Positions 8,814-17,675 of a stretch of 64,000 bases of DNA are shown here, in pieces. The stretch lies in NCBI RefSeq assembly GCF_030013595.1, contig NZ_CP122768.1; one strand, given 5' to 3'. Position 1 is the first letter of the stretch; each line of letters starts with the position of its first letter. The notes under the pieces are model-generated. The model saw only the letters and a list, made by a program, of their open reading frames with translations, was not told the DNA's origin and made no database searches. The position numbers were made by a program, and so were the translations under genes. This DNA is from Escherichia coli. GTDB taxonomy: Bacteria; Pseudomonadota; Gammaproteobacteria; Enterobacterales; Enterobacteriaceae.

Positions 8814-9872
8814 GTGGATAAGCCATTTCGAAGAATTTTGCTCATTAAGATGCGTTTTCATGGGGATATGTTATTAACTACTCCCGTCATTAGTTCGCTG
8901 AAAAAAAATTACCCTGACGCAAAAATCGATGTGCTGCTTTATCAGGACACCATCCCGATCCTGTCTGAAAATCCAGAGATTAACGCGCTCTACGGCATAA
9001 AAAATAAAAAAGCAAAAGCCTCAGAAAAAATCGCCAACTTTTTTCATCTCATCAAGGTATTACGTGCCAATAAGTATGACCTTATCGTCAATCTTACCGA
9101 TCAATGGATGGTTGCTATACTGGTTCGCTTATTAAATGCCCGTGTGAAAATTTCCCAGGATTATCATCATCGGCAGTCTGCTTTTTGGCGTAAAAGTTTC
9201 ACCCATTTGGTGCCGTTGCAGGGTGGAAATGTGGTGGAAAGTAACTTATCCGTGCTGACACCATTGGGACTTGATTCGTTGGTGAAGCAGACAACCATGA
9301 GTTACCCGCCTGCAAGCTGGAAACGTATGCGTCGCGAACTTGATCACGCTGGTGTTGGACAAAATTATGTGGTTATCCAACCTACGGCGCGGCAAATCTT
9401 CAAATGCTGGGACAACGCCAAGTTTTCCGCTGTGATTGATGCCTTACATGCTCGTGGTTATGAAGTCGTTCTGACGTCCGGCCCAGATAAAGACGATCTG
9501 GCCTGCGTCAATGAAATTGCGCAGGGATGCCAGACGCCACCAGTAACGGCGCTGGCCGGAAAGGTGACCTTCCCGGAACTTGGTGCGTTAATCGATCATG
9601 CGCAGCTGTTTATTGGCGTTGATTCCGCACCGGCGCATATTGCCGCAGCAGTTAATACGCCGCTGATATCGCTGTTTGGTGCGACAGACCATATTTTCTG
9701 GCGTCCCTGGTCAAATAACATGATTCAATTCTGGGCGGGAGATTACCGGGAAATGCCAACGCGCGATCAGCGTGACCGAAATGAGATGTATCTTTCGGTT
9801 ATTCCGGCGGCAGATGTCATTGCTGCTGTCGATAAATTACTGCCCTCCTCCACGACAGGTACGTCGTTATGA
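8814..9872 (+). CDS. waaQ: LPS heptosyltransferase III (GT9)
   Basis: Translation ...MRFHGDMLLTTPVISSLKKNYPDAKIDVLLYQDTIPILSENPEINALYG; first gene after waaA; start may be GTG 8814 or ATG 8850. Confidence 0.88.
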   Translation: MDKPFRRILLIKMRFHGDMLLTTPVISSLKKNYPDAKIDVLLYQDTIPILSENPEINALYGIKNKKAKASEKIANFFHLIKVLRANKYDLIVNLTDQWMVAILVRLLNARVKISQDYHHRQSAFWRKSFTHLVPLQGGNVVESNLSVLTPLGLDSLVKQTTMSYPPASWKRMRRELDHAGVGQNYVVIQPTARQIFKCWDNAKFSAVIDALHARGYEVVLTSGPDKDDLACVNEIAQGCQTPPVTALAGKVTFPELGALIDHAQLFIGVDSAPAHIAAAVNTPLISLFGATDHIFWRPWSNNMIQFWAGDYREMPTRDQRDRNEMYLSVIPAADVIAAVDKLLPSSTTGTSL

Positions 9873-10993
9873 TCGTTGCTTTTTGTTTATATAAATATTT
9901 TCCCTTTGGCGGTTTGCAGCGCGATTTTATGCGTATTGCTCAGACAGTCGCCGCCCGAGGTCATCATGTTCGGGTTTATACCCAGTCGTGGGAAGGCGAA
10001 TGCCCTGATGTATTTGAACTGATCAAAGTGCCGGTTAAATCGCATACCAATCACGGGCGCAATGCGGAGTATTTTGCCTGGGTGCAAAAACATTTACGCG
10101 AACATCCCGTCGATAAAGTCGTTGGATTCAACAAAATGCCGGGGCTGGACGTTTATTATGCCGCTGATGTTTGTTATGCCGAGAAAGTAGCGCAGGAGAA
10201 AGGCTTTTTCTATCGCCTGACGTCACGTTATCGCCATTATGCCGCCTTTGAGCGGGCAACCTTCGAACAGGGTAAGCCGACACAGCTGCTGATGCTGACA
10301 GATAAGCAAATCGCCGATTTCCAGAAACATTATCAGACTGAAGCGGAGCGTTTTCATATTCTGCCACCGGGGATTTACCCTGATCGTAAATATAGCCAGC
10401 AGCCAGCCAATAGCCGTGAAATCTTCCGTAAGAAGAATGGAATAACCGAACAGCAATATTTATTGTTGCAGGTCGGTTCAGACTTCACGCGTAAAGGTGT
10501 CGATCGTTCCATTGAAGCACTTGCTTCGTTACCGGATTCGCTGCGCCACAACACATTGCTATATGTTGTTGGGCAGGATAAACCGCGAAAATTTGAGGCG
10601 CTGGCAGAAAAACGCGGCGTGCGCAGTAATGTTCACTTCTTCTCGGGGCGCAACGATGTCTCGGAATTAATGGCGGCGGCGGATTTATTACTGCATCCTG
10701 CCTACCAGGAAGCGGCGGGAATTGTGCTGCTGGAAGCGATTACTGCAGGATTACCGGTACTAACAACAGCCGTTTGTGGCTATGCGCCTTATATTGTCGA
10801 GGCCAATTGCGGCGAGGCTATTGCTGAGCCATTCCGCCAGGAAACATTGAATGAGATTTTACGCAAAGCGTTAACGCAATTTTCATTGCGCCAGGCCTGG
10901 GCGGAAAATGCGCGACATTATGCTGATACACAAGATTTATACAGTCTGCCAGAGAAAGCGGCGGATATCATAACGGGTGGTCTGGATGGTTGA
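9869..10993 (+). CDS. waaG: LPS core glucosyltransferase I (GT4)
   Basis: 374-aa translation [43 protein letters not shown]; 4-bp overlap with waaQ. Confidence 0.93.
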
Positions 10994-11783
10994 ACTTAAA
11001 GAGCCGTTTGCCACGTTATGGCGCGGAAAAGATCCTTTTGAGGAAGTTAAAACTTTGCAGGGTGAGGTATTTCGTGAACTGGAAACTCGCCGTACTCTGC
11101 GCTTTGAAATGGCGGGCAAAAGCTATTTTCTCAAATGGCATCGCGGCACGACCCTGAAAGAGATAATCAAAAATTTACTCTCATTGCGGATGCCAGTATT
11201 AGGCGCAGACCGCGAATGGAATGCGATTCATCGACTGCGGGATGTCGGCGTTGATACTATGTATGGGGTGGCATTTGGCGAAAAAGGCATGAATCCGCTT
11301 ACCAGAACTTCATTTATTATTACCGAAGATCTGACACCAACCATAAGTCTGGAAGATTACTGTGCTGACTGGGCGACTAACCCTCCAGATGTTCGCGTAA
11401 AGCGTATGCTTATTAAGCGTGTCGCGACGATGGTGCGCGATATGCATGCTGCGGGCATTAACCACCGTGACTGTTATATCTGTCATTTCCTGCTGCACTT
11501 GCCTTTTTCCGGTAAGGAAGAGGAGTTAAAAATTTCGGTAATTGACCTGCACCGGGCGCAGCTTCGCACGCGCGTTCCACGTCGTTGGCGCGATAAAGAT
11601 CTTATAGGGCTTTATTTTTCTTCGATGAATATTAGCCTGACTCAGCGGGATATCTGGCGGTTTATGAAAGAGTATTTTGTCGCCCCGCTTAAAGACATTC
11701 TCAAGCAGGAACAAGGGCTGCTGTCGCAAGCAGAAGCAAAAGCCACAAAAATCAGGGAAAGAACGATTAGAAAATCGTTGTAA
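10986..11783 (+). CDS. waaP: LPS core heptose I kinase
   Basis: Translation [54 protein letters not shown]; start at internal Met of ORF 10977..11783. Confidence 0.92.
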
Positions 11784-16382: not shown

Positions 16383-16421
16383 AATGAGATTGTTAATTTC
16401 AATTTGTTGTGAGATATTAAC

Positions 16422-17675
16422 GTGGAAGTAAAAATTGAGCAATTTCGAAATAATAGCTGTAATTTTATTTTTTTATTGTATTTAATCGGTTTGTTGTTTG
16501 TGCCAATTGATCTTAATATCACCACTAAAATAATTAATGCGACAGGTGCATTTTCTCTTTTCTTATTAATTGTAAATAAAAAGCACAATTATAATAAAAA
16601 TGTCATTATATTAATTCTTGGTTTATTTCTTTTGGGTGCAATGAACCTTATATGGTATGAATTTTATAAAACAGAAGATGTAGTATATAGAAATGCTTAT
16701 CGAGGCTACCTTGAGTCTGGAAAACTATTAGTATTTAGCTCGTTGACATTTTTATTACTAAGTAAAAATAAATTCAGGCAAAATGAAAAACTACATTTTA
16801 TTTCAGCTATCTTAGTTCAAATAATCATGCTATGTAGAGCATATTATCAAGGGATATATTTGCATGCAGACCGCATTCCCCTCTCCGCCATGAATGGGAA
16901 TATTGGTCAGATGGGGGCAGCGACTATTGCGGCTTATGTGATTACATTTACAACTTTATATTCTTCAATTGTATTCATAAAAATGCAATCGAAATATAAA
17001 TGGTTTCTATTTTATGCTAACTTTGCTTTAAGCTTTGCAGCAGTAATGATGACAGGAACGCGTGCGGCAATTTTCACATTCCCACTTATGATTATGGTCA
17101 TATTATTTCTTCAGCATCGTGATCAAAAAGTGTTTTTATTTAAAGGATTGAGTGGTGTTTTTATATTGCTACTTGCTTGTGGTTTGATATTTAATAAGGA
17201 AATGGATAGGCGAATTAATTCATTAAAAGCTGATGTTATTTCATATGCTACAAAAAATAACAGTCAATCCTCGGTCGGAGCACGTTTTGCAATGGTTAAT
17301 GCAGGAATTAAAGGAAGTCCTGATGGTTTTAATTGGCAATCTCTTGAGCAGCGTGCTGAAAAGATAAAAGCATTAAGTGCAGAAAATAATATTTATAGTG
17401 GAGCTTTATTATTCCTTGATGTACATATGCATAACGAAATTGTGGAATCTCTTTCCACGAAAGGAAAAATTGGTCTTCTTGTTCTTATTATGTTCTATGT
17501 TGCAATGATCTATTACTGTATACGAGAGAAAAAATATATACTCTTGGTTTTCCCTGCTTCTATTATGTTATTTGGCATTAGTGATGTCATTACACATGCT
17601 AAACCAATACCGGCATCGTGGATTGTGTGCCTCTTCCTGTCTATATCGTTTTTGAGTAAAAATGAACCACAATAA
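16422..17675 (+). CDS. waaL: O-antigen ligase
   Basis: 417-aa polytopic membrane protein (many hydrophobic segments) as last gene of the waaQ-direction operon, convergent with waaC; very AT-rich; start codon uncertain. Confidence 0.82.
   Translation: MEVKIEQFRNNSCNFIFLLYLIGLLFVPIDLNITTKIINATGAFSLFLLIVNKKHNYNKNVIILILGLFLLGAMNLIWYEFYKTEDVVYRNAYRGYLESGKLLVFSSLTFLLLSKNKFRQNEKLHFISAILVQIIMLCRAYYQGIYLHADRIPLSAMNGNIGQMGAATIAAYVITFTTLYSSIVFIKMQSKYKWFLFYANFALSFAAVMMTGTRAAIFTFPLMIMVILFLQHRDQKVFLFKGLSGVFILLLACGLIFNKEMDRRINSLKADVISYATKNNSQSSVGARFAMVNAGIKGSPDGFNWQSLEQRAEKIKALSAENNIYSGALLFLDVHMHNEIVESLSTKGKIGLLVLIMFYVAMIYYCIREKKYILLVFPASIMLFGISDVITHAKPIPASWIVCLFLSISFLSKNEPQ

Follow-up and report, generated by a model that had tools for sequence, protein, structure and literature searches.

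Genes of the locus

In this study, a stretch of 64,000 nucleotides of Escherichia coli DNA (NCBI RefSeq assembly GCF_030013595.1, contig NZ_CP122768.1), referred to here as the window, was analysed at positions 8814-17675, where nine collinear genes of the lipopolysaccharide (LPS) core locus lie on the + strand in the order waaQ-G-P-O-T-Y-W-X-L. The genes hldD, waaF and waaC are located on the - strand, convergent with waaL. The order was obtained in agreement from the list of open reading frames (ORFs), from protein profiles and from RefSeq annotation, and it bears out an earlier reading of the letters alone (the sequence-only reading), which had described waaQ-G-P, three genes of glycosyltransferase family 8 (GT8) with one of them interrupted, waaY, a family 25 (GT25) gene and waaL, convergent with waaC-waaF-hldD. 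We read the window as carrying the chromosomal waa (rfa) locus of the R4 core type with a null allele of waaT, from which a core truncated at glucose I and glucose II (GlcI-GlcII) and a rough phenotype are predicted; the probability of this reading is put at about 0.9. Knowledge of the R4 architecture dates from 1998, and about one eighth of E. coli genomes have it. What is new is the knock-out of waaT in this strain, and the content that goes beyond the routine is confined to the strain level, namely the amber null allele of waaT and the occurrence of three alleles at its codon 102.

Domains were called with NCBIfam and Pfam profiles on the ORFs of the window, and gene names were cross-checked with the RefSeq annotation of near-identical loci. 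The first gene, waaQ (rfaQ; 8814-9872, +), encodes heptosyltransferase III (NCBIfam NF007742, RfaQ, 714 bits), in agreement with RefSeq. It is followed by waaG (9869-10993, +), a GT4 glucosyltransferase I that adds GlcI, which is named 'waaG' by RefSeq on a 100% identical gene and whose product is 89.6% identical to WaaG of K-12, and by waaP (10986-11783, +), a heptose(I) kinase gene (NCBIfam NF011703, RfaP, 479 bits); the ORF list offers starts at 10977 and 10986 for waaP, and the latter is the choice of RefSeq. The first of the GT8 genes is waaO (11799-12815, +), the product of which adds GlcII to GlcI; it contains the Pfam GT8 and GT8C domains and exceeds the equivalog cut-off for WaaO (NCBIfam NF011718; 610 bits versus 461). 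The second, waaT (12832-13827, +), encodes the GT8 transferase for galactose I (GalI) and appears as two ORF pieces in the same frame, 12832-13137 and 13156-13827. After waaY (13837-14529, +), which encodes heptose(II) kinase (NCBIfam NF007684, RfaY, 400 bits), the third GT8 gene, waaW (14555-15583, +), encodes an alpha1,2-galactosyltransferase that adds galactose II (GalII), and its ORF is intact. The R4-specific waaX (15615-16382, +) encodes a GT25 beta1,4-galactosyltransferase (Pfam PF01755, Glyco_transf_25, E = 1.9e-51). The last gene, waaL (16422-17675, +), is the R4 allele of the O-antigen (surface polymer) ligase gene (Pfam Wzy_C, E = 1.8e-07); it was identified from its position, its annotation and the source name 'Lipid A-core surface polymer ligase WaaL'.

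Core type

The locus was typed with the primers of Trofimova et al. (2025; PMC13293308, Table 2), which were run in silico over the whole window with up to three mismatches allowed. Primer R1R4-R in waaW matched exactly at 15424-15443 and primer R4-F in waaX matched exactly at 15785-15803, so that the published 380-bp R4 product was obtained at 15424-15803 by in silico polymerase chain reaction. The primers for R1 (waaV), R2, R3 and K-12 had no sites in the window at this tolerance, and neither the R2 amplicon from waaK to waaZ (610 bp) nor the R3 amplicon from waaD to waaJ (1021 bp) was obtained. The positive controls, which covered R1 and K-12 only, gave the published products, of 842 bp for the R1 strain E. 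coli C and of 1442 bp for the K-12 strain MG1655. In the window, the 842-bp R1 amplicon is missing and no GT2 gene lies between waaW and waaL; similarly, the 1442-bp K-12 amplicon is missing, waaL is not located downstream of waaC, and the nine genes of the locus do not include waaS, waaB, waaZ or waaU. A primer ascribed to the older scheme of Amor et al. (2000), TGGAATGATGTGGCGTTTAT, matched at 15431-15450 and its partner did not; this pair was not used for the typing.

The sequence-only reading had proposed an architecture like that of R1 or R4, with the GT25 gene deciding between the two. The decision falls on R4, through the 380-bp amplicon, the identity of the GT25 protein and a WaaL that is not that of R1. 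The intact 257-amino-acid form of the GT25 protein, as found in close relatives, is identical to UniRef entry Q9ZIS2, 'Beta-1,4-galactosyltransferase'. Best matches to the enzymes of K-12, R2 or R3, which the same reading had named as the outcome contrary to it, did not occur, and the identities to K-12 are 50% for WaaO, 52% for WaaY and 28.5% for WaaL. Among 5426 complete E. coli genomes, waaW of the window was found in 2526 and the full waaW-waaX-waaL stretch in 690 (12.7%); the published frequencies of R4 are 12.3% and 13.0% of E. coli. The DNA of the R4 waaL co-occurs with waaX in 690 complete genomes and has no megablast match in R1 genomes.

The core type governs which O-antigens can be ligated, the binding of phages and antibodies, and the sensitivity to some antimicrobial peptides, and the R4 prototype was the most peptide-sensitive of the prototypes tested (PMC6137088). 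The typing of this strain as R4 is a useful annotation rather than new biology.

The waaT amber codon and other changes of the lineage

The interruption of a GT8 gene that was noted in the sequence-only reading is real, and its nature, which that reading had left unresolved, is an amber nonsense mutation in waaT. The interrupted gene was assigned as waaT because its counterpart in R1, with which it shares its position and 99.1% identity, is the gene disrupted by an insertion sequence, IS1, in E. coli B. A single in-frame TAG at 13135-13137 takes the place of the TAC of the references (Y102*), and there is no frameshift. Since this stop precedes the DxD motif of WaaT (LDADV), the N-terminal product would be non-functional, and waaT is, by its reading frame, a null allele.

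The G of this TAG was found in none of the 2505 complete genomes that contain the corresponding 60-mer. The same TAG is present in ERR5386556, ERR14362488, GCA_036246605.1 and GCA_036246625.1, the loci of which are identical or near-identical to the window over 3-21 kb, and the allele is regarded as real because it occurs in at least these four other independently sequenced samples. Two of them, GCA_036246625.1 and GCA_036246605.1, are indexed as encoding a WaaT with Gln102; their DNA reads TAG, so they were taken as TAG carriers, and the index entry of these two short contigs looks like a translation artefact. A TAG in a different R4 background (SRR28759609) was not counted as an independent recurrence, because this assembly was made automatically per run and may be a mosaic of two strains. 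The paralogue waaW was rejected as the donor of the codon by gene conversion, since TAT stands at this position in its 70%-identical stretch.

Other changes accompany the amber codon. In WaaW, which is otherwise intact, W272 is replaced by glycine (GGG at 15368-15370, TGG elsewhere). This base G occurs in none of 2525 complete genomes, and the exact W272G protein is present on 24 contigs in public assemblies. W272 is the tryptophan of the HxxGxxKPW motif and is invariant in six GT8 paralogues and in the solved enzyme LgtC; WaaW is probably impaired by the substitution, to judge from this conservation. In waaX, a run of eight T is shortened to seven (16367-16373), which replaces the last four residues and gives a protein of 255 residues versus 257. 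The seven-T allele is found in 9 of 653 complete genomes, and other lineages have it in 53 index blocks and in loci that are fully intact; within the lineage of the window, it was seen in the window only. A private 1-bp deletion in a T run was also observed close to the 3' end of mtlR (44326-44912, - strand), at about 44341, where it alters the C-terminus and gives an ORF at 44157-44912 of 251 residues versus 195; being alike in kind, the deletions in mtlR and waaX may both be assembly errors in homopolymers. WaaC carries the lineage-specific change A311D (position 17751).

The coding changes classified as private to the lineage against two references are all nonsynonymous or nonsense, namely Y102* in waaT, W272G in waaW, A311D in waaC, K250N and S286N in yibQ, and P5L and G67S in lldR. 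The private changes of the closest relative include five synonymous ones; no firm conclusion can be based on such small numbers.

Predicted core structure

The outer core of R4 is aGal-(1,2)-aGal-(1,2)-[bGal-(1,4)]-aGlc-(1,3)-aGlc, and enterobacterial common antigen (ECA) has been located by mass spectrometry on the beta-galactose side branch, which is the assumed attachment site of O-antigen (PMC7504096). According to the enzyme assignments for WaaG, O, T, W, X and L in PMC13293308 and bioRxiv 10.1101/2022.09.06.506728, WaaG would add GlcI to heptose II and WaaO would then add GlcII, after which alpha1,2-linked GalI and GalII would be added by WaaT and WaaW, respectively. WaaX would place the R4-specific beta1,4-galactose side branch on GlcII, and once the core is complete WaaL would join O-antigen or ECA to it, the beta-galactose being the most likely site. 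The heptose region would be decorated by WaaQ, WaaP and WaaY.

With waaT null, GalI and GalII could not be added. In E. coli B, where IS1 lies in waaT, the outer core consists of GlcI-GlcII only (PMC5221442), and in an R1 strain mutated in waaT and also bearing manB-1, the core band was shifted downwards and the O-antigen band was absent (PMC12548472). In R1, WaaV requires the prior action of WaaW (bioRxiv 10.1101/2022.09.06.506728). By analogy with these systems, the core of the present strain is predicted to be truncated at GlcI-GlcII and to carry no O-antigen, resulting in rough LPS, and the complete R4 oligosaccharide is predicted not to be made. Primer typing or typing by the waaL allele would report this strain as 'R4', and the amber codon in waaT predicts a rough, truncated core like that of E. 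coli B; such a core would mean different phage receptors and the loss of O-antigen.

Alternative explanations

Three other explanations were considered, two of which concern the core type. An R1 locus would be ordered in the same way, except that waaV would stand where waaX is, and much of the window is indeed shared with the R1 strain E. coli C, the identities being 98.5-99.7% from WaaQ to WaaY (99.1% for both WaaO and WaaT), 91% for WaaW and 92.6% for WaaC, with a match of the common waaW primer. However, the R1 loci of E. coli C and BLR(DE3) have a GT2 gene between waaW and waaL, where the window has the GT25 gene, and the GT25 protein is 16% identical to WaaV. Furthermore, the site of the R1-F primer in waaV is absent from the whole window, WaaL is 34% identical to that of R1, and the DNA resembles that of R1 genomes only as far as about 15485-15512, within the 3' end of waaW. 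As read from the DNA, the difference between R1 and R4 is a cassette that comprises the end of waaW, the gene of the side-branch transferase and waaL, and an R1 type for the window is exceedingly improbable. A hybrid or new core type, for instance an R1/R4 chimera of the kind seen in ECOR46, or a locus changed in specificity by recombination, has a precedent in the known R2/K-12 hybrids and in ECOR46 itself, which has both waaV and waaX (PMC13293308). The lineage of the window also has private changes in the JUMPStart element of the waaQ leader, waaT, waaW and waaC, with 6 of 13 falling within 9.1 kb; this clustering in the waa region is marginal (P about 0.012 when the interval is chosen post hoc, and 0.053 when it is the operon) and was not relied on. 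These private changes are point mutations and not gene swaps, and the window holds a single waaL and a single side-branch transferase, with no primer site for waaV. In addition, hundreds of genomes have ordinary R4 loci that match the whole 9.5 kb with a DNA identity of 99.6-99.9%, so that a hybrid is very improbable, if slightly less so than R1.

The third explanation accepts the R4 type and holds that the stop in waaT is without effect, either as an error of sequencing or assembly or through amber readthrough or suppression, with a full R4 core and smooth LPS still being made. Two T runs of the window (16367 and 44341) have each privately lost 1 bp, which suggests some assembly errors, and the TAG is absent from complete RefSeq genomes. 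Residue 102 is Y, I, H or R in paralogues, so that the enzyme would probably be active if a supE-type suppressor inserted glutamine, and sister isolates carry CAG (Gln) at this codon. Against an error, the change is a substitution rather than an indel in a homopolymer, and it recurs in the independent samples listed above. Amber suppressors are not usual in natural isolates of E. coli, and none was seen in the window. This explanation is improbable, although it deserves more weight than the other two. Some further points count against the R4 locus with a null waaT as interpreted here. The Wzy_C score of WaaL, 31.5 bits, falls marginally under the Pfam gathering score of 31.7; suppression or readthrough of the amber codon may be encoded outside the 64-kb window, which itself has no tRNA genes; and the seven-T allele of waaX may be a homopolymer assembly error, since the lineage has it in the window only and a second private T-run deletion lies in mtlR. 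Finally, the need of WaaX for GalI and GalII is taken by analogy from WaaV, and a core of GlcII with beta-galactose that can be ligated may be formed.

History of codon 102

Within one natural and very young lineage of near-identical isolates, codon 102 of waaT occurs in three forms, TAC (Tyr), TAG (stop) and CAG (Gln). TAC was found in one sample of the lineage (SRR19716107), TAG in the window and at least four samples, and CAG in GCA_053637855.1 together with some 19 contigs like it; 17 contigs, under several NCBI accessions, encode exactly the Gln102 protein, counts that may include a few TAG carriers. The TAG and CAG backgrounds differ at only two positions in 19.3 kb, and the chance of one of two random differences falling in codon 102 is about 3e-4. 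The other one-step revertants of TAG (Lys, Glu, Leu, Ser and Trp) are absent from the database. Gln102 is probably tolerated, as suggested by the variation of this residue (Y, I, H and R) among GT8 paralogues. CAC (His102) was rejected as an intermediate of the lineage, because it was found only in an unrelated R1 background.

The 21-kb flanks of the TAC, TAG and CAG alleles contain no informative sites and are identical except for private singletons; the direction of mutation is therefore one that we infer. The most parsimonious path would be from TAC to TAG and then to CAG, in which the outer core is switched off by the amber codon and switched on again by a pseudo-reversion within the same codon that was selected and has spread. 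Codon 102 would then be a natural single-base on/off switch of the outer core and O-antigen, with the window in the 'off' state. This history is put forward tentatively, at somewhat less than even odds. The loss by the amber codon might have arisen under pressure from phages or from the host. If the history is true, it provides a compact natural case in which the outer core was lost and regained by point mutation.

Comparison with other core loci

The R4 prototype F2513 has been described with waaQGPOTYWXL and hldD-waaFC (Heinrichs et al., 1998, J Biol Chem 273:29497, as quoted in PMC5221442). As far as that quoted description goes, the window agrees with it in gene content and order, in the presence of waaX (GT25) and in the R4 allele of waaL, which was assigned through its co-occurrence with waaX. 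It differs from the R4 locus by Y102* in waaT, W272G in WaaW, the four-residue change at the C-terminus of WaaX, A311D in WaaC and the change of a G-C to a G-U pair in JUMPStart, and because of these differences the complete R4 core is probably not made from the locus of the window. The R1 loci of E. coli C, B and F470 likewise have waaL inside the waaQ operon and near-identical waaQ, G, P, O, T and Y, whereas they have waaV, a GT2 beta1,3-glucosyltransferase gene, where the window has waaX (GT25); the allele of waaL (34%), the 3' end of waaW and waaC have diverged. The window shares a knocked-out waaT with E. coli B (BL21/BLR). However, the knock-out in E. coli B is an insertion of IS1A in an R1 background, whereas that of the window is a point nonsense mutation in an R4 background, which can revert by one base change. 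With K-12, the window has in common the conserved ends of the locus (waaA/coaD, waaQGP and hldD-waaF-waaC) and the JUMPStart leader. The contrast with K-12 that the sequence-only reading had drawn holds, since the rfaD (hldD) operon of MG1655 includes waaL, placed after waaC, and the outer core of that strain is encoded by waaS, B, O, J, Y, Z and U. Sequenced E. coli genomes clearly show that outer-core genes have been knocked out repeatedly and independently.

Among complete genomes, the two closest are those of the UK pig isolates HCP5S3_I2 (NZ_CM149870.1) and LCP30S3_I5, in which the locus is 99.9% identical to the window. Both have an intact waaT and carry K210* in waaW (AAA to TAA; window-equivalent position 15182; gene at 10056-11084 of the retrieved stretch). 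The R4 human blood isolate 4621 (NZ_CP103479.1) has IS1B in waaT (4533-6305 of the retrieved stretch), BLR(DE3), an E. coli B strain, has IS1A in waaT (2002-3773 of the retrieved stretch), and one record of E. coli C has an internal stop in waaO (5245-6261 of the retrieved stretch).

Transcription unit and base composition

The leader of waaQ contains a JUMPStart element with an ops site at 8726-8764 (+; Rfam RF01707, 51 bits versus a gathering score of 35). The leader was searched with the ops sequence GGCGGTAGnnTG, and the ops site GGCGGTAGCGTG is located at 8753-8764; the leader thus has the JUMPStart/ops combination of RfaH-dependent operons, RfaH dependence itself being predicted. Two changes in the leader are common to the lineage, one of which is a lineage-specific C to T at 8749 that converts a G-C pair of the JUMPStart stem to G-U, giving 51 bits in comparison with 55.2 for the reference allele (RF01707). 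The spacing of the genes from waaQ to waaL ranges from overlaps up to 39 bp at most. A terminator-like hairpin with a 12-bp stem lies at 17691-17717 (+), between the convergent stop codons of waaL and waaC, and no other terminator-like site was found on the + strand within 8814-17675. From this gene anatomy, that is, the JUMPStart/ops element upstream, the gaps of 39 bp or less and the sole + strand hairpin 3' of waaL, we infer a continuous operon in which waaL would be the last gene of the waaQ transcription unit, in agreement with the literature description of R1 and R4 loci. Transcription would begin 5' of waaQ, pass the JUMPStart/ops element, where RfaH would be loaded, and run through the nine genes to the hairpin after waaL. 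Antitermination by RfaH should limit the polarity of the waaT nonsense codon on waaY-W-X-L.

The guanine plus cytosine (GC) content is 34.6% over 11799-17675 and 49.4% over the whole window, the flanking values being 47.7% for waaQGP and 51-54% for waaC, waaF and hldD. This is the lowest-GC stretch of 5.9 kb in the window, the lowest non-overlapping stretch having a value of 0.458. The AT-richness that had been noted for the outer-core genes is thus reproduced by the windowed GC content over the 64 kb, which has its minimum at the locus.

Neighbouring genes and other observations

Downstream of the hairpin, on the - strand, waaC (17723-18682; RfaC) and waaF (18686-19732; RfaF) encode heptosyltransferases with Pfam GT9 domains, and hldD (19742-20674) encodes the heptose epimerase (Pfam Epimerase); RefSeq agrees for all three. 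Between hldD and kbl lies yibB/htrL (20963-21835, GC content 0.368), as in HCP5S3_I2 and K-12. The R4 strains TUM14771 and 503025 and E. coli C lack this gene and have kbl immediately after hldD.

Upstream of the locus, HCP5S3_I2 has an IS200/IS605 tnpA between rpmG and mutM (7001-7459 of another retrieved stretch), and the corresponding part of the window (5692-5788) is without insertion. Farther downstream, a YadA-like trimeric autotransporter adhesin (37410-42173, - strand) has 1587 residues in the window versus 1745 in HCP5S3_I2, with dense differences and indels in an internal repeat at about 40263-40692, which looks like variation in repeat number. At 57236-58315 (- strand), a gene that bears the annotation 'type I restriction endonuclease' in the closest genome has an internal stop, K179*, and G116E in the window; the outgroup is without this gene.

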